A stretch of 41,602 bases of DNA from a virus. Below the pieces are notes generated by a model that was not told where the DNA came from, made no database searches, and saw nothing but the letters and a program-made list of their open reading frames with translations. Made by a program: the position numbers and the translations under genes. The stretch lies in UHGV virus genome UHGV-0205140, one strand, 5' to 3'. How positions within the stretch are numbered: the first letter of the stretch is position 1; each line of letters begins with the position of its first letter. Of this stretch, positions 3,809 to 27,706 are shown piece by piece.

Positions 3809-3955
3809 ATGTGGCAGAAGAAAAATCCATACCTGGAATACGCCATAGCCCTGCTGCGGGGCCAGAAAGAAGGGATACATAATGGGGATTGTAAAAACGG
3901 AGGCCCAGAGGAAGGCGAACCGGCTGCGGAGAGAGCGGGCAGTAGCGGCCAGTGA
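3809..3955 (+). CDS. small hypothetical protein, 48 aa
   Basis: The ATG sits 2 nt after the Lar stop, with AAGGATGGGA upstream. Confidence 0.25.
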   Translation: MWQKKNPYLEYAIALLRGQKEGIHNGDCKNGGPEEGEPAAERAGSSGQ

Positions 3956-4066
3956 CGCAGAGGCGATCCGGGGGCCTAAGCTGGATGAGTGGTCAGCCCG
4001 GATGCCGGCCTATGCGTATACGTCATTATGCCCGGATGAGAGATACAGGAGGTGATACCGTTGGAA

Positions 4067-4468
4067 ATGACAATAAAGCGCTTGGAAAGCTACAAGAGAC
4101 TGATGCAGGAAATTGCGATCCTGAGGTGGGAACTGAATGAAATGAATACAACAGATGCAGGGCTGGGGAGCAGCGTCATAAAAGACTATAGTAAGGGCTT
4201 TGAACGTCCGCAGGCAGTGGTGGGCTTTGATGGTGAACGATATAGAAGAAAGCGCCGGCTTCTGGATCAGAAAGAGGCAGAAGCAGAAGAAATTAGAAAG
4301 TGGGTTGAGGCAATCGAGGATACGGCTACCAGGAAAGTATTTGAATATTTCTATCTGGATGGGCTGCCATGGAAAGAGGTTGCAAAAAGACTGGGGTATC
4401 GGGATAACCCAGACTATCCGAGGATAATGATTCGGGATACATATTTGAAAAAAGTTGGAATGAAGTAA
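4067..4468 (+). CDS. late-gene transcriptional activator (ArpU/RinA/sigma-70 region-4-like)
   Basis: C-terminal YFYLDGLPWKEVAKRLGY resembles sigma-70 region-4 HTH. It lies immediately upstream of the terminase, as late activators do. AGGAGG upstream; the start may be TTG 4061 or ATG 4067. Confidence 0.55.
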   Translation: MTIKRLESYKRLMQEIAILRWELNEMNTTDAGLGSSVIKDYSKGFERPQAVVGFDGERYRRKRRLLDQKEAEAEEIRKWVEAIEDTATRKVFEYFYLDGLPWKEVAKRLGYRDNPDYPRIMIRDTYLKKVGMK

Positions 4469-4605
4469 AAATAATTCGTTTTATTCGTTAAATTCGTTTT
4501 ATAATAAAATCCGAAGCCAAAGGCATACAGCCGACGGCTTTCGACCAATACCTCTTCATTGAGTACATGGCCCGGCGTAACAGCTGGGCCGCCCCCCATT
4601 TTATT

Positions 4606-4678
4606 GGATCCTTAGCTCAGCTGGCAGAGCAGGTGGTTGTTAACCACCATGTCACAGGTTCGATTCCTGTAGGATCCG
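4606..4678 (+). tRNA. tRNA-Asn (anticodon GTT)
   Basis: Hand-folded cloverleaf: acceptor GGATCCT/AGGATCC, D arm GCTC-AGCTGGCA-GAGC, anticodon stem GGTGG/CCACC with loop TTGTTAA (GTT), T arm ACAGG-TTCGATT-CCTGT, discriminator G. Confidence 0.8.
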
Positions 4679-4759
4679 TTTGGATGGATACAACATTTTG
4701 TAATTTCTCCTTTGTATGGGTCCCTGCTTTGGCGGGGGCTCTCTTTTTTGTCAACATAT

Positions 4760-4779
4760 TGTGGATAATGTGTGGATAA
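4760..4779 (-). promoter_or_regulatory. two tandem perfect DnaA boxes (TTATCCACA; TGTGGATAA on the + strand), 2 bp apart
   Basis: TGTGGATAA at 4760-4768 and 4771-4779. Each reverse-complements to the 9-mer DnaA box consensus. Confidence 0.6.
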
Positions 4780-4892
4780 ATACAAGATATTGATTGGAGG
4801 TAGCCCCGGCTATCTCTTTTCTTTTACCAAAAACGACGAATCGAGACGGCTCTGGCTGCCTCTTTTTGATTGAAGAAAGCGAGGTGAGCCTG

Positions 4893-8138: not shown

Positions 8139-9932
8139 ATGACACCTGAGGAACTGGAGAAGCTGCCAAAGCCATTAGAGCGTACCATGACGGCATTGGA
8201 ATTATCGGTTATGTCTGAGATCATACAGCGGATCCGGGAAGTGGCTCAGATCACCCCAGTCGCTGATTGGCTGTTGATCCGTATGGATGCTATTGGTAAA
8301 AGCAGGAAAGAAATTAAGCGCCTGCTCCGGGATGGCGTTGGATCGGCGGGGCTTGAGATCGACCAGATCTATGATCAGGCAATCCAGTCCGATTACATCC
8401 GCAACAAGGAGATATACGAGGCTGCCGGACAGGACTATGTGCCTTATGGGGATAATCAGTGGCTCCAGCAGGTAGCGGAGGCTGTCAGGGAACAGACCAA
8501 GGACACCCTAAGGCCCATGGAAAATATCACAAAAACCACAGGTTTTAATGTGCATATGGGAGGCAGGAAAGTGTTTACCCCGCTTTCTGAGTATCTGGAG
8601 CGCAGTTTGGACAAGGCTATGCTGGGAATTACCACAGGCACAAGGACATACAGTCAGGCGGTAGGAGAGGTTATTGACGAGATGACAGCCAGCGGCATAC
8701 GAACGGTTGATTATGCATCCGGCAAATCTGATCGGATCGAAGTAGCCGCCCGCCGTGCAGTTATGACAGGAATCGCCCAGATGACGGACAAAGTAAACGA
8801 AAAGAACGCAAAAGAACTGGGGACAGATTACTGGGAAGTGGACTGGCACATGGGGGCCAGAAACACAGGAACCGGGTATCTGAATCATCAGAGCTGGCAG
8901 GGAAGGGTTTATTCTTCTGAGGAGATGAGAACCGTCTGTGGACTGGGTGAAATGCTGGGATTTGCCGGGATTAACTGCTACCATATCCGTTTTCCCTTCC
9001 TTCCCGGTATCAGCAAACGGAGGTATACAGATGAGTGGCTGGAAGAACAGAACCGGAAAGAAAATGAAAAAAAGCTGTTTAAAGGGCGCGAATACGATAC
9101 ATATGGAGCCTTGCAGTATCAGAGACGCTTGGAGCGTACAATCCGAAAGCAGAAACAGGATATTAAGCTTTTAGTGGCGGCTAAGGCTGACCCGGATGAT
9201 ATTACAGCGGCTAAGGGCAGGCTGAGGCTGACGGATAAGACCTATGTGGAGTTTTCAAAGGAAATGGGGCTTAGGCAGCAGCGGGAACGGCTGAAAATTG
9301 GAAAAGATGTATCTGAGAGGGAAAAATCTTCTATTCAGATTGAAACAGAAAGTGCGAATATTGAAAATCTTCGTAAGGGTAGCAATATTGTTGATCTGAA
9401 AAAGATTGAATCCGATTTGTTCAGAAGTAAATTTACGCAACTTACTGGAAATTCAGCAGTAAATGACGCTTTGCGGAAATATGCAAGAGCCATGCTTGTG
9501 CATAGAAACGGAAGCGATGGAGAAGATCTGTATATTATTAGTGCCAAAAGCGGAAAAAGACTTTTTTCAAAAACAAATGGATCGAATAATTTGGGAGTAG
9601 AATTATCCAAAGAAGAAATTGAGGAAATCCAGAATTATGCCAGAACAGAGGGAATTATAGGGATGCATAACCATCCAACAAATGTATATCCTACAGGAGG
9701 GGATTTTGTTTCCGCTGGAGCAAGAGGATATGATTTTGGAGTGATAGTTACCCATGATGGAAGAGTGTTTCAGTATAAAGCTGGAGACAAACCATTCCGC
9801 AGTGAATATTTTAATAAGACTGTTGACAAATATGTTTCGAGGCCATACACTTATGACATAGAAGAGGCGCAGTTGACAGCATTGAAAGAATTTGAGAAGG
9901 AGTTTGGAATCGAATGGAGGGAATTGAAATAA
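8139..9932 (+). CDS. minor head / head-morphogenesis protein (MuF / SPP1 gp7 family) fused to a low-GC C-terminal cargo domain with a RadC/JAB-like HNHP motif
   Basis: The N-terminal roughly 390 aa look MuF-like and sit after the portal. Base composition drops sharply from about position 9300. The C-terminal region contains IIGMHNHPTNVYPTGGD (compare RadC ILAHNHPSGDPTPSxxD). Confidence 0.6.
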   Translation: MTPEELEKLPKPLERTMTALELSVMSEIIQRIREVAQITPVADWLLIRMDAIGKSRKEIKRLLRDGVGSAGLEIDQIYDQAIQSDYIRNKEIYEAAGQDYVPYGDNQWLQQVAEAVREQTKDTLRPMENITKTTGFNVHMGGRKVFTPLSEYLERSLDKAMLGITTGTRTYSQAVGEVIDEMTASGIRTVDYASGKSDRIEVAARRAVMTGIAQMTDKVNEKNAKELGTDYWEVDWHMGARNTGTGYLNHQSWQGRVYSSEEMRTVCGLGEMLGFAGINCYHIRFPFLPGISKRRYTDEWLEEQNRKENEKKLFKGREYDTYGALQYQRRLERTIRKQKQDIKLLVAAKADPDDITAAKGRLRLTDKTYVEFSKEMGLRQQRERLKIGKDVSEREKSSIQIETESANIENLRKGSNIVDLKKIESDLFRSKFTQLTGNSAVNDALRKYARAMLVHRNGSDGEDLYIISAKSGKRLFSKTNGSNNLGVELSKEEIEEIQNYARTEGIIGMHNHPTNVYPTGGDFVSAGARGYDFGVIVTHDGRVFQYKAGDKPFRSEYFNKTVDKYVSRPYTYDIEEAQLTALKEFEKEFGIEWRELK

Positions 9933-9961
9933 GAGGTAAGGATGTCATAGTCCATGAGGAA

Positions 9962-10042
9962 ATGACGGAAGAGGAAAGAAATGCAGAATTAGAACGATTA
10001 AAAAAAGAAAGCGAAGCTTTAACCGAATGGGAAGAAGAGTAG
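9962..10042 (+). CDS. 26-aa acidic peptide (speculative)
   Basis: Short ORF MTEEERNAELERLKKESEALTEWEEE between the MuF cargo domain and the terminator, with no strong RBS. Confidence 0.1.
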   Translation: MTEEERNAELERLKKESEALTEWEEE

Positions 10043-10044
10043 AT

Positions 10045-10076
10045 ACCACCAGTCAGTAATGGCCGGTGGTTTTTTG
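10045..10076 (+). terminator. rho-independent terminator
   Basis: Stem ACCACCaG / CCGGTGGT followed by TTTTTT. Confidence 0.55.
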
Positions 10077-10091
10077 TATGCATTTTTAGGT

Positions 10092-10107
10092 TGTGCGACG
10101 TCGCAAC
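10092..10107. promoter_or_regulatory. 16-bp element TGTGCGACGTCGCAAC with a 12-bp perfect palindrome core, copy 1
   Basis: Identical 16-mer at 27623-27638. It lies 15 bp upstream of the fibre-gene ATG, between the terminator and the RBS. Confidence 0.45.
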
Positions 10108-10122
10108 AGGGAGGTGAAACCG

Positions 10123-12303
10123 ATGATTGCAGCAGTATTTACAGAGAATAACGATTACGCCCAGGTTTACGGCGTGTGGCAGTGGGATTACGGGCAGGAG
10201 CTGCGGATCCAGGGCCTAAATCTTCCGGCGGCGGTTGAGATTCACTTTGCACTACAGGAAACCGGCGGCGAAGCTGTGACCCGTGTAGGTGTAACGCAGG
10301 ACGGGATAACAACCGTTCCGATCCCGGACAGTATGTTAGAAGGAGCCGGAAACTCTAAGGACTATCAGATCTATGCGTGGGTGTACCTGGCAGATCAGGT
10401 ATCTGGTGAAACGATCAAGCGGATCAAGATGCAGGTCAGGGCAAGACCCATGCCAGAGGCTTTTGAGGCTCCAGAAGATGGGGAGATCTTCCGTCAGGCC
10501 ATCGAGGCCGTCAATGAGGCCGCCAAGAGGGCAGAGGACGCGGGAAAGGAGGCAGTATCCTCCGCGGGTGAGGCCAGGGAGGCGGCCACACAGGCGGGGA
10601 AACATCTGGAAACCGTCCGGGGGTTGGCAGATCAGGCAGAGATTAACGCTGATACCGTGGCACAGGACAAACAGGCAGTAGCCGGTATGCTCTCTCAGGT
10701 GCAGCAGGCGGCCTCAGAAGCGGCCCTGTCGGCAGAGGCAGCCAAGTTATCAGAGACAGCCGCAGGACAGGCCCAAACGGGCGCAGAGGCGGCAGAGGAT
10801 GGGGCAAGGCAGTATGCCGCAGACACGGAGGCAGACCGGCAGGAGGTTGCAAGCGCCAGGCAGGCAGTACAGCAGATGCGTGAGACCGTGGCAGCGGACA
10901 AATCAGAAGTTGAGCAGACAGCAGCAGGTTTTGTAGATACAGCCCGGCAGGCAGTATCAGATGTTAATGCTGCGGGCAAGGCCCAGGTAGATGCTATTAA
11001 GACAGCCGGGCAGGGTGCGTCAAATGCGGTAGAGACAGCCAAAACAACAGCAGTACAGGCAGTCACTGCGGAAGGCGATAAGCAAGTACAGCGAGTGCAG
11101 GAAGCGGCGGCAGGTGTTGAGGCCGATCGGGAGCAGATCAACCAGAATAAGGCCGACATAGCTGGTTTGGCAGAAGGCATAACTGATCTGGCACCGGGGA
11201 TCAAGATTACCACCACCGGCACAGACATCACCATCAAGGACGCCGCCGAGGGCCGGGCGTTTAAGGGGCTGCGGGTGTTTGGGCGGACGGATCAGAAGGG
11301 AACGCCAAGCCCGGAAACTCCGCAGGAGATGGAGACGGCGGGGGAGAGCGGTAGTATTGAGGTATTGGTAGCTGGCAGTAATCTGTTAAAACCCAACAAT
11401 TACAATGTTTTTTGCGAATCTCCGTTGGAAGCAAACACGGTAGTTACTCTTATGACGAATGGAAAAGCATCAAATGGTGGCAATATTAAATTTATCGGAA
11501 CCGATGATTCAAATGTCTGGTTTAGTATTGATAAAGGACAAACCAGGGTTTGCAAATCTATAGGAAGTAAGCCTGTTAAAGGTTTTTATGATTTACTCAC
11601 ACAGACGTCTGGACTAGAATATATGCTTGCCGTTGGTGATGTAAAAACCTATGAATCCTACCGCACCTCCCAGTCCCTTACGCTATCCACCCCAAACGGC
11701 CTTCCAGGGATCCCAGTATCATCCGGCGGCAACTATACAGATGCCAAGGGCCAGCAGTGGGTATGCGACGAGATCGATCTTGGACGCGGGAAGTATGTGC
11801 AGCGGGTAGCAGCCGAAAGCATAAGCGGCGGCTGGAAGTTGGTGGATACTTCAGACGTACCAGGAAGATTTATCCAAAATAACCGTGTGTCCAATGCATA
11901 TGCAAATGGAGGGAAAACCGCACTATGTACTATTGCAGCGTGGACAAATTATGGTGTAAGTAAAGGGGATAATAGATATGTGTTCGTGGTAAGTGGTACT
12001 GCGTTTTATATATCTCCACCATCGGATGTATCCATGACAGCGGACGAACTTAATGCAAAGCTTAATGCATTAAAAGATCCTGTGGTTATACTGGGGCAGC
12101 TTGCCGCCCCCATCGAACGCGGCCTCACCCCGGAAGAGATCGCCGCCTACAAGGCCCTTCGGACGTACAGCCCGACTACGGTTGTGAGCAATGACGCGGG
12201 GTGCCATATGGAGACAACCTATATCGCTGATACCAAGACCTATATCGACAACAAATTTGCGGCCCTTAATAAGACCATATTAGATGCAGTAGGAGGTACA
12301 TAA
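10123..12303 (+). CDS. fibre-like structural protein: BppU-N-like N-terminal domain, about 250-aa Ala/Gln/Glu-rich coiled coil, beta-rich C-terminal receptor-binding-like domain
   Basis: ATG 10123 with a GGGAGGTG RBS (the track ORF starts at an upstream GTG). Architecture and composition as described. Located between MuF and scaffold. Confidence 0.55.
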   Translation: MIAAVFTENNDYAQVYGVWQWDYGQELRIQGLNLPAAVEIHFALQETGGEAVTRVGVTQDGITTVPIPDSMLEGAGNSKDYQIYAWVYLADQVSGETIKRIKMQVRARPMPEAFEAPEDGEIFRQAIEAVNEAAKRAEDAGKEAVSSAGEAREAATQAGKHLETVRGLADQAEINADTVAQDKQAVAGMLSQVQQAASEAALSAEAAKLSETAAGQAQTGAEAAEDGARQYAADTEADRQEVASARQAVQQMRETVAADKSEVEQTAAGFVDTARQAVSDVNAAGKAQVDAIKTAGQGASNAVETAKTTAVQAVTAEGDKQVQRVQEAAAGVEADREQINQNKADIAGLAEGITDLAPGIKITTTGTDITIKDAAEGRAFKGLRVFGRTDQKGTPSPETPQEMETAGESGSIEVLVAGSNLLKPNNYNVFCESPLEANTVVTLMTNGKASNGGNIKFIGTDDSNVWFSIDKGQTRVCKSIGSKPVKGFYDLLTQTSGLEYMLAVGDVKTYESYRTSQSLTLSTPNGLPGIPVSSGGNYTDAKGQQWVCDEIDLGRGKYVQRVAAESISGGWKLVDTSDVPGRFIQNNRVSNAYANGGKTALCTIAAWTNYGVSKGDNRYVFVVSGTAFYISPPSDVSMTADELNAKLNALKDPVVILGQLAAPIERGLTPEEIAAYKALRTYSPTTVVSNDAGCHMETTYIADTKTYIDNKFAALNKTILDAVGGT

Positions 12304-12746
12304 TGCATGAGATTATAAGAAACGTAATCCAGTCGGGCAGCTATGAACTGACGGATATTCTGAAAAAGATCGATACCATCTGGCTCCAAGGCGCCCTCAC
12401 GGATGAGGAGCGCACGGAGCTGGTTGATCTGGCCCGTACCCGCGCCGACCCGGAAAACAGTTATGCCCCATTGCAGAAACAGGTCGACACCCTGTACACC
12501 AACATGACTGAGATGGGAAAGACAATCCTCAGCCTGACGGGCCGGATCGCCAAGCTGGAAGGCGGCAGCGTCACCCCGCCAGAGACGGAGGAGTACCCCG
12601 CATGGGTACAGCCCACCGGGGCACATGACGCTTATAACACCGGCGATAAGATGACTTACACGGACGGCAAGCGGTATATCTGCCAGATGGACGGCTGCGT
12701 ATGGGGGCCGGATGCGTACCCATCAGGCTGGAAACTGGTTGAGTGA
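12303..12746 (+). CDS. small protein with a C-terminal CBM5/12 (chitin-binding type 3-like) carbohydrate-binding domain
   Basis: C-terminal AWVQPTGAHDAYNTGDKMTYTDGKRYICQMDGCVWGPDAYPSGWKLV matches the CBM5/12 W..Y..GD.V...G..Y...W pattern. The ATG overlaps the upstream stop. Confidence 0.5.
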   Translation: MHEIIRNVIQSGSYELTDILKKIDTIWLQGALTDEERTELVDLARTRADPENSYAPLQKQVDTLYTNMTEMGKTILSLTGRIAKLEGGSVTPPETEEYPAWVQPTGAHDAYNTGDKMTYTDGKRYICQMDGCVWGPDAYPSGWKLVE

Positions 12747-12760
12747 GGGGAGGTGAGCTC

Positions 12761-12883
12761 ATGGGACTGATTACATGGTGGAGACAGCGCAGATGCAGGC
12801 ACAGGTACCGTAAGCATTGGAGCCGGGAGGCTGGCGGGTATGTGCGGCGGTGCGTTAAGTGCGGAAAGGAGATTAAGAGATGA
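12761..12883 (+). CDS. 40-aa basic Cys-rich peptide
   Basis: GGGAGGTGAG RBS. Its stop overlaps the next ATG (ATGA). Confidence 0.3.
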   Translation: MGLITWWRQRRCRHRYRKHWSREAGGYVRRCVKCGKEIKR

Positions 12884-13146
12884 GTGAGTGCAAGAGAGAA
12901 ATGAGATTAGATGATACAGCTGAGATGATGAGCAGTCCAGATTACAAGGAACGCTTTAGGGCCGAGTATTATCAGATTGTGATTCGATACCGCAAACTGA
13001 AAGCTATGCTGGATAAGTGGGATCAGGATATGCTGGACTTTGAGCCGACCTGCCCCAGAAGTACCTACAATATGCAGGTAAAGGCTATGACGGATTATAT
13101 CGCTGTGTTGGAAGCACGGGCAGTAATGGAAAGCGTAAAATTGTAG
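12880..13146 (+). CDS. hypothetical helical protein
   Basis: ORF coupled to the upstream peptide. Confidence 0.4.
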   Translation: MSECKREMRLDDTAEMMSSPDYKERFRAEYYQIVIRYRKLKAMLDKWDQDMLDFEPTCPRSTYNMQVKAMTDYIAVLEARAVMESVKL

Positions 13147-13178
13147 TCATAGCAAGTCATAGAATTAGTCATAAGCAC

Positions 13179-13216
13179 GCAGGCGGGGCCTGGGTGTTAT
13201 TTTTATGTTTTTTTTC
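13179..13216 (+). terminator. putative intrinsic terminator
   Basis: CAGGC-GGG-GCCTG hairpin followed by a T-rich tract TTATTTTTATGTTTTTTTT. Confidence 0.35.
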
Positions 13217-13860: not shown

Positions 13861-15054
13861 ATGGCAGTACATATTACAAGCAGGGCCGATGCAGAGGCCA
13901 TTATCCGTGAACAGGTGGTATCCACTATTTTTCAGGATGCGCCCAAACAGTCTGTATTCATGTCTTTGGCACGCAAGCTGCCGAACATGACAAGCAATCA
14001 GACCCGTATCCGTGTACTGGATTTCCTGCCGACTGCTTACTGGGTAAACGGTGACACTGGTATGAAGCAGACCAGCAAGCAGGCATGGGATAACGTGTAT
14101 ATCAATGCGGCAGAACTGGCAGTCATCGTTCCGATTCCGGAGGCAGTCCTGGACGACGCAGAGTTTGACATTTTTGGAGAAATCACTCCAAGAGTGAATG
14201 AGGCAATCGGCCAGAGAGTAGACAGTGCCGCTATCTTCGGTGTGAACCGTCCGGCAGAATGGCAGAACGATATCGTTACACTGGCCCGTCAGGCGGGCAA
14301 TAACGTAGCACCTGGAGGAAGTCCTGATTATTATGACCTGATTCTTGGAGAAGGCGGCGTGATTTCCAAGGTAGAGGAAGATGGTTATATGTCCACAGGT
14401 GCTCTGGCTTCTATGGGAATGAGGGCAAAACTGAGAGGGGTTAAATCTACTGACGGAACCCCTATCTTTAAATCCGATATGCAGGGCTCTACAAACTATG
14501 CACTGGATGGTGCGCCGATGTACTTCCCTCAGAACGGGGCATTTGACAATACGATTGCGCAGCTGATCATTGGCGACTTTAAGCAGGCTGTATATGCAAT
14601 CCGTCAGGATATCACTGTAAAGATTCTGGATCAGGGTATTATTCAGGATCCTGCTACAAAGGAGATCGTCTACAACCTGGCCCAGCAGGACATGGTAGCG
14701 CTGCGAATCGTGTTCCGTATGGGCTGGGCGCTGCCGAACCCTGCAACCCGTATGGATGAGGACCGCGTGGGCTGCCCGTTTGCATATCTGGAGCCTGCAA
14801 CTGCAGTAACCACCCAGAAGGTTACTTTTACAGTCAAGGATAACAACAGCGAGCCTAAGGCCGTTGAAGGCGCTATTGTGGATGTGAATGGTTCCCGACT
14901 GAAAACCAACGCCGCCGGCGTGGTAGAGTTCTATTTGCGTCCAGGTACTTATCCGGCAAAGATCAAAAAGAATGGGTATGGTACGATCACGGAGACCGTA
15001 ACTGTAGACAAGGCTGCGGTACCTAAGGCGATCACTCTGATCCCCAATGCGTAG
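13861..15054 (+). CDS. major capsid protein (HK97 fold) with a C-terminal CarboxypepD_reg/Ig-like beta-sandwich extension
   Basis: About 400 aa following the scaffold. The C-terminal VTFTVKDNNSEPKAVEGAIVDVNG...GVVEFYLRPGTYPAKIKKNGY resembles carboxypeptidase-regulatory-like domains. Confidence 0.65.
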   Translation: MAVHITSRADAEAIIREQVVSTIFQDAPKQSVFMSLARKLPNMTSNQTRIRVLDFLPTAYWVNGDTGMKQTSKQAWDNVYINAAELAVIVPIPEAVLDDAEFDIFGEITPRVNEAIGQRVDSAAIFGVNRPAEWQNDIVTLARQAGNNVAPGGSPDYYDLILGEGGVISKVEEDGYMSTGALASMGMRAKLRGVKSTDGTPIFKSDMQGSTNYALDGAPMYFPQNGAFDNTIAQLIIGDFKQAVYAIRQDITVKILDQGIIQDPATKEIVYNLAQQDMVALRIVFRMGWALPNPATRMDEDRVGCPFAYLEPATAVTTQKVTFTVKDNNSEPKAVEGAIVDVNGSRLKTNAAGVVEFYLRPGTYPAKIKKNGYGTITETVTVDKAAVPKAITLIPNA

Positions 15055-17247: not shown

Positions 17248-17694
17248 ATGCAAAGTATCAATTTTGATGAGGGAATAAAAACATTTTCTATCAATGGGGA
17301 CGAGGCAAGGGTGATTCGTATCAATCCAGGAGATCTGAACTTGCTCATCCGATCAGAAGAGGCGCAGAAACATATAGCAGAATATCAGGAGCAAATTAAA
17401 AGAATCCCATTAAATCCAGACGGAACGCCTGTAGATGGATCAGAAGAATCGTCAGACGCTTTACGATCATTTAATTCCATGATGCGGAAGGAACTGAACT
17501 ATATATTTAATGCAGACGTTTATGACACTGTGTTTGCTGGACAGTCCCCTTTATGTACTGTGGGGAAGGAAAAGATGTTCCTTTTTGAAGCCTTTATGCT
17601 CTCCATGATGTCGATTATCAAAAACGAGATTGCTGAATTTAATGCCGCCAGTCAGGCGCGTGTGAAAAAATATACTGGAGGATATTCAAAATGA
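17248..17694 (+). CDS. tail assembly chaperone
   Basis: Position upstream of the tape measure. Acidic protein. Confidence 0.5.
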   Translation: MQSINFDEGIKTFSINGDEARVIRINPGDLNLLIRSEEAQKHIAEYQEQIKRIPLNPDGTPVDGSEESSDALRSFNSMMRKELNYIFNADVYDTVFAGQSPLCTVGKEKMFLFEAFMLSMMSIIKNEIAEFNAASQARVKKYTGGYSK

Positions 17695-18251
17695 TAGGCA
17701 GGCTGCCGACGTCCTTAACTGTGTCAGGCAGTGTTCTTGATATCAGAACCGATTTCCGTGATATCCTCGTTATCATGCAGGCGTTTAATGATCCAGAATT
17801 ATATTTGGATGAACAGTATGAAGTGATGCTGACCATACTGTATGGGGACTTAAACTGTATCCCCCCAGACGCTTTTCCAGAAGCTATCAAGCAGGCGCTG
17901 TGGTTTCTGGACTGTGGACAGCAGGAAGAGGATAAAAAAAGTCCGGTAAAAGTAATGGATTGGGAGCAAGATGAGGCGATCATATTTCCGGCAGTAAACA
18001 AAGTTGCCGGATGTGAGGTAAGGGGGAAAGAATACGTCCATTGGTGGACATTTATGGGATATTTTATGGAAATAGAAGAAGGAACGTTTTCTACGGTTCT
18101 TGGCATTCGCCAGAAAAGAGCAAAGGGAAAGAAACTGGAAAAATGGGAGCAGGAATTTTACCGGAATAATAAAAGACAGTGTGATTTGAAACGTAAACAC
18201 ACAAAAGAGGAACAGGCAGAAATTGACTATTGGAATAGGCTATTGGGGTAG
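17691..18251 (+). CDS. Gp15-like tail assembly protein
   Basis: Position between the chaperone and the tape measure. Overlaps the upstream gene by 4 nt. Confidence 0.4.
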   Translation: MIGRLPTSLTVSGSVLDIRTDFRDILVIMQAFNDPELYLDEQYEVMLTILYGDLNCIPPDAFPEAIKQALWFLDCGQQEEDKKSPVKVMDWEQDEAIIFPAVNKVAGCEVRGKEYVHWWTFMGYFMEIEEGTFSTVLGIRQKRAKGKKLEKWEQEFYRNNKRQCDLKRKHTKEEQAEIDYWNRLLG

Positions 18252-18297
18252 GCGTCGAAAGGCGTCTTATTTTTATACCCGGAAATGAGGTGAGAGC

Positions 18298-21093
18298 ATG
18301 GCATCAGATGGCAGCTTAATATTTGACACGAAGATTGATACCTCTGGTTTTGAAACTTCCAGTCTGGAAAAGGCGGTAGATAGGCTTTCTGCGTTGGTAG
18401 ACAGTTTATCTGCAAAATTGGACAAAACGTTTTCAGATTCAGGGACTGCAGTGTCTGCAACCTCCCGTAAAGTAGACGGCATGGCAGAAGCTGCCAAAAA
18501 GGCAGCAGACGAGATGGAGCGGCTCAGGAAAGAGAAAGCGTCAGTATTTTCAGGAACCATCACGAACAACAATGCGTCTGTATTGGCAACACCAGACAAT
18601 GGAAAACGGTATGATATCTATGGAAATGATGTAGATGTTATGATTGCTAAAAATAAGGAACTGGAAGAGGCAGCGCGGCAGGCATCAACTGCGGTCACTG
18701 CCGAAACACAGAAGGAAGAAAAAAGTGTGTCCAGTTTTAAGGATACTGTGTTTTTGGCGGTTAATGCTTTCAAACATTTTCCCGGAAATATTTCTGCGCT
18801 TTTTAACCGCGTTGGAGAATCTATTGGCAGTACAGATTTTAAGTTCCGTACACTGCAGGATGAGTTAGACCACTATCAAGAAAAACTGTATTATGCAGAG
18901 CGAAAAGGGCTTGGTCTGGGAGATGCAGAGTATGATAAGGCATACAGGGGACTGATGTTGGCTAAAAAAGCGGCAGAGAAATATAAAAGTTCTCTTTTGA
19001 ACGCAGATCAGGGGCAGAAACGGGTCGACAAATCCGCAAATCAAATGAGAAATTCCCTAAATAAAGCGGGGAAGTCCGCAAAAAGCACTGGGAAAGGATT
19101 AAATACCCTGGGGCGTTCCATTATTTTTTCACTGGTTTTTCGTTCTATAAGCATGATTGAGAATCAGATAAAAGAAGGTTTCCAGAATCTGGCCCGGTAC
19201 TCAGACGAGACCAATAAAAGCGCATCCCTGCTTATGTCAGCTAATACGAGGCTTAAAAACAGCTTTGCAACGGCATTTGCGCCGGCATTACAGGTGGCAG
19301 CCCCCGCATTAAAGCAGATTATTGATCTGTTATCTATGGGGGCGACCTATGCAGGGCAGTTTATCGCTGCCCTGACAGGAAAAAGTACCTTTGTAAAGGC
19401 TGTGGATGTGGAGGAAGATTATGCAGCCTCTTTAAAAGAATCCAATGATGAATTAAAAGAGAAGGAAAAGGCAACTAAAAAACTGACATTTGCATTTGAT
19501 GATCTGATACAGGCACAGGGAAGTGATGCTCAGTCAGCAGAAACATACAAACCTCCAACACCGGATCAGATGTTTGAAACTGTAGAGATTGAAACGGATA
19601 TCGTAAAATTTGCGGATAGGGTAAAGGAAATCCTTTCCGGGCTTTTTGACCCTATGCAGCAGTCCTGGGATGAAAACGGATCTGCAGTTATGGACGCAGC
19701 AGAATTTGCCCTTAACCAGCTAAAAAAGTTGGGCAGCGATGTAGGCAGTACATTTATGACTGTGTGGGAAAAAGAGGGCTACGGGAAGGCTGTAACGGAT
19801 GACGTTCTGATTTCTATTTCCAATCTCTTATATACAGTTGGGAACTTGGCACAGGGATTTGATGAGGCATGGACAAGTGGGAATACAGGCCTGCTTATCA
19901 TGCGCCATCTGGGCGATCTTTTGCTGGAGGTAACTGGATTTTTTCGTGATGCAACAGGGGAAATTAGAACATGGTCGGCGACCCTTGATTTTTCTCCGCT
20001 CCTTGTGTCCTTTGATGGGGTATTAGTGAATATGCGCCCCATAGTGAATGCAATAGGTGAGTTGCTTTTGTGGTTTCTCAGTGACGTGCTTCTCCCGCTG
20101 GCAAAGTGGGGATTGGAGAATGCCGTGCCCGCCGCTTTTGATTTGATATCGGCAGCTTTAAAGGTACTGTCCTCAATTTTGAATGCACTGAAACCATTGG
20201 CATTATGGTTATGGGATGAATTCCTGCAGCCGCTTGGACAGTGGACGGGGCAGCTTATCATAGCAGCCCTTGAAAAACTGGTAGAATGGCTTACAAGATT
20301 CTCTGATTGGATTTCACAGAATCAGACCTTGGTAGCCAATATAACGTTGGCGGTGTTGGCGTTTTTTGCGGCATGGAAAATCACGGAATTTGTTACAGGG
20401 ATAGCTAAACTCATAAGTGGACTGGGCGGTTTCATAACAATTGGCGAACAGGTGATCGTTATGTTATCTCGGACTGTATCAAGTATAAGCCCTTTGACAC
20501 TTGCTATATCCAGTATTATTTCTTTAATTTCTGTATTGGCTTTGAATTGGGACTCTATGACTCCAACAGAGAAAGTTATTACCGGTGTACTGGCGCTGGC
20601 ATCCGCCGCGGGAATTCTGGCAGTTGCTCTGGGAGCGTTATCTGGCCCAGCTGGAGCAGCCGTGATGGCAGCCTCTATCGCAGCTGGAGTTGCTGCCGCT
20701 GTAATAGCTATCAACGCAGGTAAGCGTGCCGCGTCGTCTGGATATTCCAATAGTGGGTCCAGAGGCAGAAACGGCTATCCTGTATCAGCTTATGAACTGT
20801 CACTACACGGAATCCCCCGTTTGGCTACAGGCACGGTAGTACCTCCGCGTGCGGGAGAATTTGCGGCTATATTGGGAGATAATAACCGTGATACAGAGAT
20901 TGTCAGTCCGATCCCTGCCATGAAACAGGCTTTTAAAGAAGCAATCGAGGAAATGGGTGGAGTCGGTGGAAATAATACACTGCGGGCAGACTTGATTATA
21001 GATGGGACAAAGTTTGGACAGTTGGTTTATAAATTTAATAATCAGGAGAAACAACGCGTTGGTGTGAGAATGGTGGTGGAAGGGCAAGCATGA
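18298..21093 (+). CDS. tail tape measure protein
   Basis: 931 aa. N-terminal coiled coil, central hydrophobic segments and Gly/Ala-rich TM-like segments. Canonical position. Confidence 0.8.
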   Translation: MASDGSLIFDTKIDTSGFETSSLEKAVDRLSALVDSLSAKLDKTFSDSGTAVSATSRKVDGMAEAAKKAADEMERLRKEKASVFSGTITNNNASVLATPDNGKRYDIYGNDVDVMIAKNKELEEAARQASTAVTAETQKEEKSVSSFKDTVFLAVNAFKHFPGNISALFNRVGESIGSTDFKFRTLQDELDHYQEKLYYAERKGLGLGDAEYDKAYRGLMLAKKAAEKYKSSLLNADQGQKRVDKSANQMRNSLNKAGKSAKSTGKGLNTLGRSIIFSLVFRSISMIENQIKEGFQNLARYSDETNKSASLLMSANTRLKNSFATAFAPALQVAAPALKQIIDLLSMGATYAGQFIAALTGKSTFVKAVDVEEDYAASLKESNDELKEKEKATKKLTFAFDDLIQAQGSDAQSAETYKPPTPDQMFETVEIETDIVKFADRVKEILSGLFDPMQQSWDENGSAVMDAAEFALNQLKKLGSDVGSTFMTVWEKEGYGKAVTDDVLISISNLLYTVGNLAQGFDEAWTSGNTGLLIMRHLGDLLLEVTGFFRDATGEIRTWSATLDFSPLLVSFDGVLVNMRPIVNAIGELLLWFLSDVLLPLAKWGLENAVPAAFDLISAALKVLSSILNALKPLALWLWDEFLQPLGQWTGQLIIAALEKLVEWLTRFSDWISQNQTLVANITLAVLAFFAAWKITEFVTGIAKLISGLGGFITIGEQVIVMLSRTVSSISPLTLAISSIISLISVLALNWDSMTPTEKVITGVLALASAAGILAVALGALSGPAGAAVMAASIAAGVAAAVIAINAGKRAASSGYSNSGSRGRNGYPVSAYELSLHGIPRLATGTVVPPRAGEFAAILGDNNRDTEIVSPIPAMKQAFKEAIEEMGGVGGNNTLRADLIIDGTKFGQLVYKFNNQEKQRVGVRMVVEGQA

Positions 21094-21476
21094 CCGAAAC
21101 GATATTTTCTATAGATGGCGTAGAACTTAGGGTGAATGTAATGAGTCTCGAAAGGGGATTCTCGGTAACGGATACGAAGAACTCAGGACGACTTCAAAAC
21201 TACGGTATGTATCGGGAAGTGGCCGGTACTTTTTATAATTACACGCTGGAGATTGAACCTTATCCGGGATATAGGGATGACTATGATACATTTTATGAAA
21301 TCATATCCGCTCCTGTCAGATCCCATCAGATGACATTTCCTTACGCGCAGAGGAATCTAACATTTGAAGCCTATGTGACACAGGGGAAAGATAAAATGAA
21401 ACGGATCAAAGGGAAAAACCTGTGGAGCGGGTTGTCCATATATTTTGTAGCCATGGAACCACAGAGGAGGCCATGA
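21090..21476 (+). CDS. tail component (short distal-tail-like protein)
   Basis: Overlaps the tape-measure stop. Call from gene order. Confidence 0.3.
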   Translation: MTETIFSIDGVELRVNVMSLERGFSVTDTKNSGRLQNYGMYREVAGTFYNYTLEIEPYPGYRDDYDTFYEIISAPVRSHQMTFPYAQRNLTFEAYVTQGKDKMKRIKGKNLWSGLSIYFVAMEPQRRP

Positions 21477-21479
21477 GAG

Positions 21480-23273
21480 ATGTTCCTGAAAGAGTCAATC
21501 CGCTCAGACGCGGCAGAAAATACAGAAGGGTTAAAGATTGTATATGACGATGTGGCGCCATACGCAAAAGAGCACAGCAGCCCTCAGGTGATCCAGTCCG
21601 GCCTGCGCCCGCGGAAGGTGCTGTATCCAGGCAATGGGCTGGTGCCGCAAAAGACAGTCGTCCAGAAGGCATTTCCAGAACTTAAAAGAGATGACCTGAT
21701 CTATCCAGGGTACTCCTTGTGCCTTCCGAGATTTGCGTTGATGAATGGTAAGTATGTCAATTTTCCTGATGATGCAGAAAATTACGGGTATATATCGGAT
21801 GAGGTGTCAGATGAAAACGGCCGTCTGGCAAAGATAATAAATTCTGCAGGCGTGCGCCCAAGCAAAAAGCTCAAACCAGGCCTGTTTGTATTTCCATCCA
21901 GTACATTGCGACAGGTGACCAAATCCCCAGAACTTACCGTAATGTTTAGCCAAAAATTTACAAGTGTTGGCCTTCTGTTGACGTTTAATATGATGTCAGG
22001 CGATTACTGTACAAAGCTGAGGGTTAAATGGTATTCGGAAGGCAAACTGCTGTCCGACATGGAATTTATGCCGGATGCAGTACGGTACTTTTGCAGTAAT
22101 TATGTGCAGCTGTACGATAAAATTGTGATTACGTTTTACGAAACATCACAACCATTTCGTCCGGTATTTATTACAAGGATTGATTATGGGATATACCGTG
22201 ATTTCTTTTCCGATGAACTTTTAACAACCTCCTGCTTACAGGAAGTCAACGCAATCAGCGAAAATATCAGTGTCAATACACTGAATTTTACGGTACGGAC
22301 AGAAACCAATATACCGTTTGACTTTCAAAAGAAACAGAAACTTGCGGTGTATTTTAACGGGCAGAGGATCGGAAACTTTTATCTGAAAAACGGTGCCAGA
22401 AAAAACCGGACAGACTACCAGATGGACAGTCATGATGCTATTGGCGTGCTGGATGGAAATGAATTTACTGGAGGGATTTACACCGGACAGACAGCGGCAG
22501 TGGTGATCGGGCAGATATTTGACGGGGAAGATTTTGGCTATCTTCTGGATGATACGTTGTCAGATATTCCATTGTTCGGACACATCCCATATACAACGAA
22601 ACGAAACGCTCTGGTACAGGTTGCCTTTGCGATTGGGGCAGTGGTAGATACGAGTAATTATGATGGGGTCATGATTTATTCGCAGCAAACGGAATTGTCA
22701 GGGACATTTACCCAGGCAGATGCATTTGATGGTTTGACGCTGGAACACAGCGATGTAGTTACAGGTATAAGGATTTCTGTGCATACATACCAGCCATCAG
22801 AGGAGATAGAAGAACTTTATAATGATGTGTTAAATGGTACAGCGGAAGTTATTTTTTCAGAACCGCATTATGATTTGTCGGTTACTGGCGGAGAACTGGT
22901 TAAACATGGCGATAACTATGCCGTGATTAAAGGCACAGGGGAGACAGTGATTCTTAGGGGCAAAAAATATACGCACTTGACGACATCGCTTTTAAAAGAG
23001 AACCCTGCTATTGTGTTCAATAAAAATGTAAAAGAGGTGTCAAGTGCTACTCTGGTACATACAGGCAATGCAAAAGAAGTTCTGAACCGTGTGTATGAAT
23101 ATTACCAGCGTGCTGAAAACGTAAGGGGTGACGTACTTTTGTCAAGTAAGATGCTGGGACAAGTAGTAGGTGTTGATACTGCATATGATGGACAGAGGGA
23201 AGGAACGATCGAAAGCATATCATATCAGTTTGGAATAAAAGAAATCCGGGCGGAGGTGGTAATACATGAGTAA
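21480..23273 (+). CDS. tail tip / baseplate protein (Tal-like position)
   Basis: 597 aa in the position of the tail-associated lysin/tip protein. No recognisable catalytic motif. Confidence 0.35.
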   Translation: MFLKESIRSDAAENTEGLKIVYDDVAPYAKEHSSPQVIQSGLRPRKVLYPGNGLVPQKTVVQKAFPELKRDDLIYPGYSLCLPRFALMNGKYVNFPDDAENYGYISDEVSDENGRLAKIINSAGVRPSKKLKPGLFVFPSSTLRQVTKSPELTVMFSQKFTSVGLLLTFNMMSGDYCTKLRVKWYSEGKLLSDMEFMPDAVRYFCSNYVQLYDKIVITFYETSQPFRPVFITRIDYGIYRDFFSDELLTTSCLQEVNAISENISVNTLNFTVRTETNIPFDFQKKQKLAVYFNGQRIGNFYLKNGARKNRTDYQMDSHDAIGVLDGNEFTGGIYTGQTAAVVIGQIFDGEDFGYLLDDTLSDIPLFGHIPYTTKRNALVQVAFAIGAVVDTSNYDGVMIYSQQTELSGTFTQADAFDGLTLEHSDVVTGIRISVHTYQPSEEIEELYNDVLNGTAEVIFSEPHYDLSVTGGELVKHGDNYAVIKGTGETVILRGKKYTHLTTSLLKENPAIVFNKNVKEVSSATLVHTGNAKEVLNRVYEYYQRAENVRGDVLLSSKMLGQVVGVDTAYDGQREGTIESISYQFGIKEIRAEVVIHE

Positions 23274-23706
23274 ATATCTGGATGCGCTGATTTTTGACCG
23301 TGTGGCGGCAGATGTACAGGAACTGACAGACAAAGCGTATATTGATTACAGGGATTTAAATCGTATTGAGTCAGCGATCAAATGGGTTTCTTATGTGTTA
23401 AACAAATATGGATACAGGAATGTTACAGATAACAAACTTAACTGGAAACCCGAAGACCGACGAACAGATAGGGAAATGGATCGGCTGCGAACTAATCTTA
23501 TAACAATTCGGGAGGCTTACTATACGCTTCCCAGTACCCCGCAGACCCCAGAGAAAATCACGTTTGCGTCTGTTTATCAGGCGAATTTTATTGAAAAGAT
23601 TATATTTGATATAGGAGATTTGATTGAAAAATCATTTCCTGGTCCATATAGATTATCCTTTCATTTGGGAAAACGTACATTTGGAAACAGGAGCATAAAC
23701 ATATGA
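23266..23706 (+). CDS. hypothetical tail-associated protein
   Basis: GGAGGTGG RBS. Overlapping starts and stops within the tail operon. Confidence 0.4.
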   Translation: MSKYLDALIFDRVAADVQELTDKAYIDYRDLNRIESAIKWVSYVLNKYGYRNVTDNKLNWKPEDRRTDREMDRLRTNLITIREAYYTLPSTPQTPEKITFASVYQANFIEKIIFDIGDLIEKSFPGPYRLSFHLGKRTFGNRSINI

Positions 23707-24203
23707 GTTTAAAGACTACTTACAGAGATGATAAATTTTCAGGACGCCGCAAATACCGGATGATCGAGAATGAAGATGGTACTATCAGCTTTGACGATGT
23801 AACGGACTATGCAGAGGAAGGGGATATATTTTCTTCTAACGATATCAATGTAACAAACAAAGCGATCAATGATGCAAATGAGAAAATAAAAACAACAAAA
23901 AAACAGATCGAAGATCTGGATGCAGAACTAAAGGGGCAGAGTGTGGTAAATGTACCTGCCAATAATTGGAGTCAATCTGTTCCATATTCGCAAAAAATAT
24001 CTGTTCCAGGGATTACGGCAGAGGATAGCCCGTCGGTCGGGGGGCCCTGGCTTGGGGATTCTCCGTCTGTAGATGTGGCCAAAAACAGAAAAAAGGCGTT
24101 TGGGTATGTGGATCGTGCTGTGAGTGGAGAAGGAACTATAATGCTGTATTGCTATGGTTCAAGGCCCACTGTAGATTTTTCAATCATGATAAAGGGGGTA
24201 TAA
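23703..24203 (+). CDS. hypothetical tail fibre-associated protein
   Basis: Coupled within the operon. Confidence 0.4.
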   Translation: MSLKTTYRDDKFSGRRKYRMIENEDGTISFDDVTDYAEEGDIFSSNDINVTNKAINDANEKIKTTKKQIEDLDAELKGQSVVNVPANNWSQSVPYSQKISVPGITAEDSPSVGGPWLGDSPSVDVAKNRKKAFGYVDRAVSGEGTIMLYCYGSRPTVDFSIMIKGV

Positions 24204-24206
24204 ATT

Positions 24207-24611
24207 ATGGCAGAGTGCCGGGTATATAACGGAAGTGCTTTTAACAATGAAATCTTAACTGCAAAAAGGGAAGATGTTCTGCCTCCGTATATTTTTGTAG
24301 GAAATGAAAGTGAGAATGCAGCGGTTGGCAGTATGGTAGAAAATGGTACAGTTCAAGCAGAACTTCCCATCAATGGGACCTATATGATCCCGGAAGGCCA
24401 CGCCAACTCTGTGAAAGTGACGCAGGAAATTCCGGTAATTGGACCACAATATATAGTTCCAACAATCAATGGACTAAAGGCAGGAGTGAAAGGGGCATAT
24501 ATGACTGGAAATGTGGTCATAGCTGCTATACAGGGAATATCGGAAGATGTAATAAAAAAAGGTGTGCAGATAGGTTCGTATACGGGAAAATTTGAAGGCT
24601 TCGTAGATTAG
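24207..24611 (+). CDS. fibre-like protein, paralogue A (shared N-terminal module)
   Basis: N-terminal roughly 100 aa align by eye with the N-terminus of the 24625 gene. AAAGGGGG RBS. Confidence 0.45.
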   Translation: MAECRVYNGSAFNNEILTAKREDVLPPYIFVGNESENAAVGSMVENGTVQAELPINGTYMIPEGHANSVKVTQEIPVIGPQYIVPTINGLKAGVKGAYMTGNVVIAAIQGISEDVIKKGVQIGSYTGKFEGFVD

Positions 24612-24624
24612 GTGGTGAAAACTG

Positions 24625-25557
24625 GTGGAGTGTATAGTAAAGAATACAGGTGCGGCTTTAGACATCCGTGGATTGACGGCTAAGCCAGGGTATGTAAAAA
24701 AGGGCAAAACTTTTATTGGACAGGGCAGCGATGAAGAACAGATAGGTACCATGCCGATCATTGATGCCGCTGATCATGTCTTGACAATTAACGGGGAGTA
24801 TCAGTCGGCAGCAGGCTACTATGCCGCAGGCAGCAGGATTGTGCAAAACATTCCGACCATGGAACAGCAATATATAATTCCTAGTGGCGAGCAGCAGACA
24901 GTAGAGACAAAGGATAAATATATGATAGAAGATGTAGTCATAGCAGGGCTACCAAATCTAAATGCCTTTAATATAAAAAAGGGGACAGTTATAAAACTTG
25001 GTGACTACACAATTATCGGAGTTTATGAAGGGTATGAGAACAACGATCCTATGGTGCCATATTATAACGGCGTATTTGCTCCTGGCCAATCGATAAACTC
25101 TTTTCCTGCATTTGGAAGAAAAGCCGGAGAATATTATGTGGGAGATGTGACGTTCGGACGCGATAATCTGCATCTTGAAAATCCGCTGGATACACGTTAT
25201 GTAACAACGGCGATCGTTTTTAACAGGCCATTGAATTTTGACGAAATCAATGAGATTGAATTGCGGTATTCTCTGGATAATGCAACAGGTGGATGTTCGG
25301 TTCTGGCAGCGACAGGATATGAAACGGAGTATATTTATAGAAGGGCTGATAGTGGCTCTGGAAAAACTTATCACGAAGGACTTGGAACTTACTGGCAGCG
25401 TGAAATACCAGACACAAATGGCAATGTCAGCAACCGTACGCTTAATGTGGCATCAGTTACAGGAAGCAGGTACCTATACATATCGCTTAGTATGCGTACT
25501 ACGTCAAGTATAGCGATTGCCAATCTGACATTACGAGAGTTGAAGTGTAAAAAGTAA
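24625..25557 (+). CDS. fibre-like protein, paralogue B, with a longer distinct C-terminal domain
   Basis: GTG start with an AGGTGGTGA RBS. N-terminus paralogous to the 24207 gene. Confidence 0.45.
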   Translation: MECIVKNTGAALDIRGLTAKPGYVKKGKTFIGQGSDEEQIGTMPIIDAADHVLTINGEYQSAAGYYAAGSRIVQNIPTMEQQYIIPSGEQQTVETKDKYMIEDVVIAGLPNLNAFNIKKGTVIKLGDYTIIGVYEGYENNDPMVPYYNGVFAPGQSINSFPAFGRKAGEYYVGDVTFGRDNLHLENPLDTRYVTTAIVFNRPLNFDEINEIELRYSLDNATGGCSVLAATGYETEYIYRRADSGSGKTYHEGLGTYWQREIPDTNGNVSNRTLNVASVTGSRYLYISLSMRTTSSIAIANLTLRELKCKK

Positions 25558-25568
25558 GGAGAGAAAAC

Positions 25569-26252
25569 ATGGCAGAGAAGGAATATATACCTACACATTG
25601 GGTGAATGATTCAGAACCAGATATTGATGCGGAACATTTGAACAATATGGAAGAAGGAATTCAAGGTCTGTATAAACCGGAATTTGACGATAGTGGAACG
25701 GTAGAAGGGATTACCAGCTTTCCAGCATTCCTTGAGAAGGTAGTCAGTAAAATGAATCCTATTACATTTTACAAGAACTTTAAAGCTGGAATGTCATTTA
25801 TCCTTCATGCTGGCCAGCTTGTAAATAATGGCTTGTGCAACGAACCGGGAAAGTATCCACTTGATGCTGCTTTTGGAAAGAATCTCCAGGATCAGATCAC
25901 TCAACAAAATAGCAATTTAGGAGATACAGGAAGCCGACTAGAATCGCTGTCCAGTGACCTTAATACAGTCAAAACAAATGTGGATCCGGTTAAGTCATCA
26001 TACATTGACAATGCAGACACTAACATTCTCAACCGGATTAACCTTGTTGTTTGGGACCCAGATACAGCCAGTACCCCATATAAAACCGGAAACACTGTAT
26101 ATGGTAATGGTTTCTGCATCACCTACAGCACCGGTGATCAATGGCTGTGCCAGCTTGCAATGGCAGTTGGTGATCCTAATCTGTTCACTCGATACAAGCG
26201 CCTCGGGACATGGTCCGGCTGGACCACAATAGGCACATCATCCAGTGTATAA
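25569..26252 (+). CDS. tail fibre protein (XkdV-like conserved N-terminus)
   Basis: N-terminal YIPTHWVNDSEPDIDAEHLNNMEEGI matches the Firmicutes phage tail-fibre N-terminal motif W..G..I.A..LNN.E.GI. AAGGAGAG RBS. Confidence 0.6.
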   Translation: MAEKEYIPTHWVNDSEPDIDAEHLNNMEEGIQGLYKPEFDDSGTVEGITSFPAFLEKVVSKMNPITFYKNFKAGMSFILHAGQLVNNGLCNEPGKYPLDAAFGKNLQDQITQQNSNLGDTGSRLESLSSDLNTVKTNVDPVKSSYIDNADTNILNRINLVVWDPDTASTPYKTGNTVYGNGFCITYSTGDQWLCQLAMAVGDPNLFTRYKRLGTWSGWTTIGTSSSV

Positions 26253-27622: not shown

Positions 27623-27638
27623 TGTGCGACGTCGCAAC
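27623..27638. promoter_or_regulatory. 16-bp element TGTGCGACGTCGCAAC, copy 2
   Basis: Identical to 10092-10107. It sits 8 bp after the holin stop and upstream of the toxin-cassette promoter. Confidence 0.45.
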
Positions 27639-27677
27639 GCAGACAGGCCCAGGGGATTCCTGAGGTCTATATTTTGA

Positions 27678-27706
27678 TTGCGGCATAATTGCTGCTGTGC
27701 TATAAT
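27678..27706 (+). promoter_or_regulatory. promoter with an extended -10 (TGcTATAAT) and a weak -35 (TTGCGG)
   Basis: TATAAT at 27701-27706 preceded by TGc. -35-like TTGCGG at 17-bp spacing. Confidence 0.5.

Follow-up and report, generated by a model that had tools for sequence, protein, structure and literature searches.

Phage 80alpha FibL consists of a BppU-like immunoglobulin (Ig) domain, a coiled coil and beta domains, and six FibL trimers are carried on the baseplate (PMC7048315). The N-terminal rings of FibL and FibU make few contacts with Dit or with the tail tube (PMC7048315). The locus considered here belongs to the virus genome UHGV-0205140, a stretch of 41,602 nucleotides (the window), and lies between the gene encoding MuF and the gene encoding the scaffold protein. 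Two open reading frames (ORFs) of this locus, ORF726 and ORF147, probably constitute a relocated host-recognition cassette, made of a BppU/FibL-type tail fibre and of a partner bearing a carbohydrate-binding module (CBM), and carried in an accessory slot of the head module. In the proposed mechanism, the N-terminal Ig-like domain would anchor ORF726 to the virion (baseplate), an Ala-rich stalk of ~260 residues would project a tip of two jelly-roll modules, and ORF147, translationally coupled to ORF726, would be the cognate partner. The cassette would ride as cargo in a pre-existing MuF-scaffold slot of an Enterocloster-type temperate siphovirus. Its host range would be re-tuned by recombination (swap of the tip segment), and the cassette as a whole would pass from one phage backbone to another and between two palindrome-marked slots.

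The genome of the window is of the temperate siphovirus type. Its genes are found in the following order: TerL, portal, MuF, scaffold, major capsid protein (MCP), connectors, tail tube, tape measure protein (TMP), tail tip (21090-26252), holin, CHAP-type endolysin, integrase. Its GC content is 0.46, and the closest named homologues of ORF726 originate from Enterocloster, the nearest of them being a protein of E. alcoholdehydrogenati. The gap between the stop codon of MuF (9932) and the start of the scaffold gene (13315) holds ORF42, hairpin 1, a palindrome, ORF726, ORF147, ORF46, ORF88, repeats and hairpin 2. The hairpin terminators, the palindrome, the genes of 726 and 147 codons and the two small ORFs of the original prediction for this DNA were all recovered, at or near the places assigned to them.

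Architecture of the fibre and of its partner

ORF726 (10123-12303, + strand) starts at an ATG located 7 nt past GGGAGGTG, a strong ribosome-binding site, and shares the start M-I-A/T-A-V-F with its homologues. Residues 1-110 (10123-10452, +) form an Ig-like beta-sandwich of the BppU/FibL anchor type. This BppU N-domain fold was identified by fold comparison only. A BppU-N-like N-terminus had been predicted; it holds for the fold and not for the sequence, which has neither a Pfam BppU_N match nor a PDB sequence match. The Pfam search of ORF726 gave 0 matches, PDB sequence searches with ORF726 and with a profile of its N-terminal family returned nothing, and the one PHROG match has an unannotated function. 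At 50% identity, the family defined by residues 1-125 is very large and numbers 3169 representatives. The domain is N-terminal in every representative listed, on proteins of 130-1215 aa. Since this conserved N-terminal domain sits on otherwise variable proteins, it is read as a probable virion anchor.

The stalk (residues ~115-378; 10465-11256, +) is alpha-helical and rich in Ala, Glu and Gln. Residues 115-378 include 25% Ala, 11% Glu, 9.5% Gln and 2 Pro in 264 residues. The hydrophobic periodicity is 3.5-3.6 residues (heptad-like), the GC content is 0.60, and the helix of the structural model begins at residue 119. The stalk is presumed to be a trimeric coiled coil. The tip (residues 396-653; 11308-12081, +) comprises two beta-sandwich/jelly-roll modules and an invariant linker. 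In the model of residues 396-726, two beta-sandwich domains are confident and the invariant linker between them is poorly modelled. Composition, periodicity and model support a coiled-coil stalk and a beta-rich tip, as announced by the original prediction. Fold comparison of the tip gave likeness only to generic jelly rolls (e.g. CBMs, viral spikes), and the tip is assigned to no family; a glycan on the host surface would be its most likely ligand. The C-terminal module (residues 654-726; 12082-12303, +) has a helix at its end and is kept in all length variants. It lies inside a 98%-identical block (12107-12867) and is also conserved in gp16 of the Ruminococcus gnavus phage phiRg519T2. The homologues of ORF726 number more than 1500 (563-1252 aa). 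The N-terminal half is common to them, and their C-terminal modules vary by deletion, exchange or tandem duplication.

ORF147 (12303-12746, +) overlaps the stop codon of ORF726 by 1 nt. It includes an N-terminal helical domain, a short coiled coil and a C-terminal CBM5/12-like module (residues ~98-147). It has more than 3000 homologues, and among those with 60-70% identity many carry PF02839 (CBM_5_12). The N-terminus is weakly similar to phrog_2310 (unannotated function). The CBM5/12 domain that had been predicted is supported at the level of the family: PF02839 is matched by 9 of 33 aligned members (best E 1e-7) and the family profile matches the chitin-binding domain of ChiA1 (1ED7, E 0.0065). 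ORF147 of the window itself has no match to PF02839 at E<0.1. Six aromatic residues (Y111, Y119, Y125, W134, Y139 and W143) are invariant over 33 homologues, and the stretch that contains them aligns with 1ED7; they would form the binding face. A resemblance of the N-terminus to XkdX was considered and dropped (Pfam support: 0 of 33 members).

In most of the loci examined, a partner of the ORF147 type is encoded directly 3' of the fibre gene, and in two proteins the same anchor is fused straight to an ORF147-type CBM. Because of these two fusions and of the usual place of the partner gene, the CBM of ORF147 probably acts on the same structure as the fibre. ORF147 may be a small oligomeric protein aiding fibre assembly, a fibre-borne CBM5/12 glycan-binding adhesin, or both.

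Mobility of the cassette and exchange of the tip

Cassette DNA (10045 to ~11340 and 12107-12867) is 95-98% identical across four different backbones: the phage of the window, a sibling, a siphovirus with an unrelated head, and a sheath-bearing myovirus with a SU10-type capsid. The block of identity shared with L003, L007 and L016 begins exactly at hairpin 1, past the stop codons of unrelated ORFs. Recombination would be the means of this movement. The sibling (contigs L017, L018, L094 and L095) has head, connector and tail-tube proteins with 94-100% amino-acid identity to those of the window; its TMP has 29%. A sharp mosaic boundary is found just past the tail-tube gene when the sibling is compared with window positions 17248-21093.

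The GC content of the distal part of the fibre gene is mosaic: 0.40 at 11336-11666, 0.59 at 11667-11812 and 0.44 at 11813-12106. L017 is 97.6% identical to the window up to 11335 and from 12107; the tip between these positions differs. The two segments of lower GC content (11336-11666 and 11813-12106) are 100% identical to those of L035, a myovirus with a holin-site cassette. Elsewhere the fibre gene of L035 has diverged further (identity over the full alignment, 91%). The exchangeable tip segment is therefore delimited as 11336-12106, with the reading frame kept. The AT-rich blocks from which domain shuffling had been suspected are exactly the segments replaced between the siblings and found unchanged in the myovirus copy. 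Comparison of these copies argues strongly that they are a recently swapped segment.

The genomic homes of the fibre family were surveyed on 80 IMG/VR loci carrying the anchor. The classical tail-end position, after Tal or BaseplateJ/Gp48, accounts for about 15-20 of them. About 28 have the order holin, fibre, partner, lysin, with a homologous palindrome and hairpin preceding the fibre gene; several of these holin-site phages have heads ~90% identical to that of the window phage. About 20 have the order MuF, fibre, partner, scaffold. More distant relatives of ORF726 occupy classical tail positions, which is why the family is regarded as a relocated tail-fibre lineage. This agrees with the second alternative of the original prediction, a translocated accessory receptor-binding protein. 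Slot occupancy was also cross-tabulated per genome with the window holin; this covered 7 loci only, relatives using another holin. In L005 (1-8000), the same cassette stands behind a diversity-generating-retroelement-type reverse transcriptase, holin, lysin, methyltransferase and helix-turn-helix genes, and not behind terminase, portal and MuF; L005 represents a rearranged prophage or else a chimeric assembly.

A second survey, anchored on the scaffold gene, covered ~70 phages whose MuF and scaffold genes are related. Only two of the ~70 loci have the fibre in the MuF-scaffold gap, both on contigs of one sibling phage. In the other loci MuF, behind which some phages have a small ORF, precedes hairpin 1 and the palindrome; zero to several small ORFs come next, then hairpin 2, and a conserved leader leads to the scaffold gene. 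L114 represents an empty slot (three consecutive hairpins, z -5.8). In L152, MuF and scaffold genes are 148 bp apart with the palindrome alone between them. The slot is considered to be a moron-like insertion site because the two genes are adjacent in L152 and the slot is empty in L114. Cargo found elsewhere includes the zinc-ribbon ORF46 and, in L097, L098, L104, L106 and L107, Sequestin, a Tad2-like double domain (PF11195, E 6e-25; L106, 5322-5831), DUF4406 and DUF6275. The slot of L149 holds two ORFs (134 and 367 aa) that are presumably IS200/IS605-like, judging by their appearance (unchecked). From its gene content, the MuF-scaffold slot is an accessory and anti-defence hot spot, of which the fibre pair is one rare cargo.

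Several results weigh against a baseplate-borne fibre. Docking at the baseplate would follow from the anchor fold and from the position of homologues, by analogy. Pfam BppU_N is unmatched at E<=1 in 31 of 31 family members, and no specific match for the tip fold was found in the fold comparison. No sigma-70-type promoter was found in the slot (10045-10123; the scan covers no other promoter types). Anchor-less proteins with the same jelly-roll tip recur in head and packaging modules. Lastly, the anchor is ~97-98% identical among phages whose heads are unrelated and whose distal tails differ, one with a contractile tail included, and no specific docking partner is evident because of this near-identity on differing tails and heads. 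A generic, largely self-assembling collar on the tail is plausible by analogy. The genes for the anchor-less proteins (~290-625 aa) separate portal from MuF in at least 36 loci, and TerL from portal in 4. No 147-aa partner accompanies these proteins, and they lack Pfam and PHROG annotation (L009-L013, L183-L258; Dulem virus 35, L002 3503-4996). Some of them begin with 4-5 repeats PVTRxEYY(L/M)AKxAG.

That the pair acts outside the virion, as free or cell-associated proteins, is unlikely; examples would be a lectin for receptor masking or superinfection exclusion, or an accessory to lysis or cell-wall targeting. Such a role would account for the moron-like terminators bounding the slot, for the anti-defence genes otherwise found there (Sequestin; Tad2-like in L106), for the location of about one third of the cassettes between holin and endolysin, and for near-identical cassettes in unrelated backbones, as expected for a backbone-independent function. 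It does not account for the conserved anchor, stalk and exchangeable tip (the hallmark plan of virion fibres), for the homologues that hold the main fibre position after BaseplateJ/Gp48 or Tal, or for the anchor-CBM fusions. Moreover, no signal peptide or transmembrane segment is evident in either protein (sequences read by eye, without a predictor).

It is about equally doubtful that ORF726 is an auxiliary adhesin co-expressed with the head genes and borne on the capsid or at the head-tail junction (collar or whisker). The position of the gene between MuF and scaffold, the recurrence of this tip domain on anchor-less proteins of packaging and head modules, and an anchor common to phages with different tails, hard to fit with specific tail docking, all speak for such a head or neck fibre. 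The anchor fold agrees with baseplate anchors, however, and distant homologues are at the tail end. The heads of the backbones sharing the cassette vary as much as their tails (Phage_capsid, SU10_MCP, unassigned MCP), and the same cassette occurs at holin-lysin sites in ~28 loci, so that position does not track function. Nearly all head modules of relatives lack the gene, and a PDB sequence search found no similarity to any solved head fibre. The phi29 gp8.5-like head fibre of the original prediction is not supported, in view of the baseplate-type anchor fold, the distant homologues in tail modules and the scarcity of the gene in the slot of relatives. The same scarcity shows that the gene is not a standard head component in relatives.

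The palindromic element GTTGTGCGACGTCGCAAC (10090-10107, no strand assigned) marks the 5' end of the slot. A 16-bp palindrome had been predicted; the element is present, with a perfect core of 12 bp (TGCGACGTCGCA, 10094-10105). Its 15-mer has a second exact copy at 27624-27638, a copy number reached in 0 of 100 shuffles. With a hairpin, this copy forms an unoccupied counterpart of the slot directly past the holin stop codon (27624-27668, +). A small hydrophobic ORF (27689-27841) follows the post-holin palindrome and hairpin. The variants TGCGACGTCGCA, TGCGACATCGCA and TGCGATATCGCA have the centres GACGTC, GACATC and GATATC, and keep the arms TTGCG/CGCAA. Nearly every relocated cassette has the palindrome 24-69 bp 5' of its fibre gene, whereas the classical copies in tail modules lack it. 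It is also found in slots without fibre. An RNA hairpin or 5' untranslated element is unlikely, the fold in the window being weak (-5.6 kcal/mol, z -0.8). The palindrome precedes the terminator at holin sites and follows it at MuF sites. Because of this weak RNA fold and of the opposite placement relative to the terminator in the two slots, a role at the DNA level is favoured, as a protein-binding site or a recombination joint. An operator of ORF46 was also considered; the coupling is not strict, palindromes without ORF46 being found in L113, L114 and L152 and at holin sites.

A further reading gives the palindrome a larger part. The fibre pair would be a backbone-independent adsorption module that requires no docking partner particular to a phage, forming a self-assembling collar on any tail or not anchored to the tail, and moved between the two palindrome-marked, terminator-bounded slots by a dedicated site-directed mechanism recognising TTGCG-N4-CGCAA. 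This is improbable. If true, the palindrome-directed mechanism would represent an integron-like system with accessory and host-range genes of phages as its cargo.

A decaying or hitch-hiking cargo without current function, suggested by the rarity of the cassette in the slot (2 of ~70 relatives), is very unlikely in view of the intact ORFs with good ribosome-binding sites and translational coupling, of the more than 1500 homologues with conserved domains, and of the recent in-frame exchange of a 100%-identical tip. The relocated BppU/FibL-type fibre and CBM partner is retained as the favoured explanation.

The slot and its neighbourhood

Hairpin 1 is the left boundary of the slot (10045-10075, stem 10045-10070, +). 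It is followed by a T6 run and is intrinsic-terminator-like (RNA fold -14.7 kcal/mol, z -2.65). Hairpin 2, the right boundary (13174-13216, stem 13174-13198, +), has a U-rich tract and is terminator-like (-15.6 kcal/mol, z -2.3). Its position is conserved in empty and filled slots. The hairpins of relatives differ in sequence, yet a T-run follows each at the same position. A generic terminator scan lists just the short inner stem of hairpin 2, and the number of sites is not above that of shuffles; the support for the hairpins is therefore comparative. The cassette had been described as an autonomous insulated unit. The terminators do exist; they and the palindrome are fixtures of the slot, present even when it is empty (L114).

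The two tiny coupled ORFs that had been noticed after ORF147 do overlap (ATGA), and are not accessories of the fibre: one is a zinc-ribbon resident of the slot and the other a Sequestin gene. ORF46 (12761-12883, +; ATG 12761 is the most likely start) encodes a basic zinc-ribbon-like protein, small and rich in Cys, with matches to phrog_4188 and phrog_7696 (neither with an assigned function). ORF46 is almost always among the slot cargo, stands straight after the palindrome in fibre-less relatives (e.g. L009, L096), and was not detected behind the partner in holin-site cassettes. By its distribution, ORF46 is a resident of the slot and not of the fibre cassette.

ORF88 (12880-13146, +), whose start overlaps ORF46, belongs to the Sequestin family (PF21825; E 1.8e-19, 69.8 bits for a cut-off of 24.8, 60 of 61 model positions). 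This family sequesters 3' cyclic ADP-ribose (3'cADPR) and blocks type I Thoeris; 10 of 13 tested members are active (bioRxiv 10.1101/2025.07.12.664507). ORF88 is thus a putative anti-Thoeris 3'cADPR sponge. It is absent from the siblings L017, L003 and L007, in which 12867 joins ~13145-13154, and is therefore regarded as a separate insertion.

Three direct GTCATA(G/A) repeats (13146-13173, +; starts 10 and 12 bp apart) precede hairpin 2 and are kept in L003, L007 and L096. The leader of the scaffold gene is a cis-regulatory GP20-b RNA motif (Rfam RF03003; 13217-13282, +; 44.1 bits for a gathering threshold of 36.2, E 1.5e-7). It is located directly after hairpin 2, 33 nt 5' of the PF06810 scaffold gene, and the leader is conserved in L096 and L114. 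Upstream of the slot lies ORF42, a small ORF (9914-10042). Pfam matches of ORF42, ORF46, the C-terminal extension of MuF and the small post-holin ORF are at chance level only.

Residues 373-597 of MuF (9257-9932) form a variable C-terminal extension. Extensions of relatives carry ADP-ribosyl exotoxin or Ntox50 domains (L007, 5572-7263; L009, 11579-13078). That of the window has a motif HNHP...GGD, presumably JAB/RadC-like from its appearance, with no Pfam match. MCP residues ~313-390 (14797-15030) form a C-terminal beta-sandwich that is PEGA/carboxypeptidase-regulatory-like, with weak Pfam matches (PF08308 barely over the cut-off, PF13620 under it); it is possibly a fused Ig-like decoration on the capsid surface. 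A tRNA gene (4606-4678, +, 68 bits) lies within a 1-kb block (3809-4805) upstream of the terminase genes. This block is 92-96% identical in the otherwise unrelated L003 and L007 and is another shared mobile block.

Significance and comparison with known systems

The host range of Lachnospiraceae phages in the gut is still little understood. At this locus, a complete module of fibre and putative adhesin is traded almost unchanged between siphoviruses and myoviruses, and between two marked slots of the genome. Its portable anchor and swappable tip may provide a scaffold for engineering the host range of gut phages. The tip domain is present in more than 5000 proteins and has no Pfam family. The locus also calls for caution in annotation based on position: what appears to be a 'head-module' fibre would be a baseplate-type fibre in an anti-defence hot spot. 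The MuF-scaffold slot is itself a place in which to seek new anti-defence genes.

Among known systems, phi29 gp8.5 likewise has a plan of base, helical shaft and tip, and a gene among head genes. No sequence or fold link was found between gp8.5 and ORF726, whose anchor is of the baseplate type and whose gene is not constant in the head module of relatives. Morons and anti-defence hot spots (Hendrix-type) likewise have a discrete terminator-bounded slot, genes that are adjacent in relatives, and variable cargo (including Sequestin and Tad2-like). The present slot differs from them in that no promoter was found (sigma-70-type scan), in that the cargo includes a large structural-type fibre, and in that the palindrome recurs at the post-holin slot. 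T4 gp38 and P2/Mu Tfa are, like ORF147, small proteins encoded immediately 3' of the fibre gene, translationally coupled to it and travelling with it. ORF147 is not homologous to them and differs by its coiled coil and its CBM5/12-like module; it may serve as chaperone or as tip adhesin.

The closest annotated relative of ORF726 is gp16 ('tail fiber protein') of phiRg519T2: the anchor has 54% identity, and both the overall plan and the C-terminal module are kept. The gene encoding gp16 sits classically, after Dit and Tal and before the small 'chaperone' gp17 and holin, and its stalk is much shorter than that of ORF726. The label 'tail fiber' of gp16 is positional; no experimental, virion or host-range data on gp16-type proteins were found in the R. 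gnavus phage papers. gp17 ('putative chaperone') resembles the N-terminus of ORF147 (26% identity, E 0.001) and lacks the coiled coil and the CBM5/12.

ORF726 shares the anchor fold of 80alpha FibL (gp62; phi11 gp54) and FibU (gp68) and of TP901-1 BppU (ORF48), and with FibL it also shares the overall plan. Unlike these proteins, to which it has no detectable sequence similarity, it has a tip made of two uncharacterised jelly rolls, its gene is outside the tail module in a terminator-bounded slot, and its anchor is also found in myoviruses.

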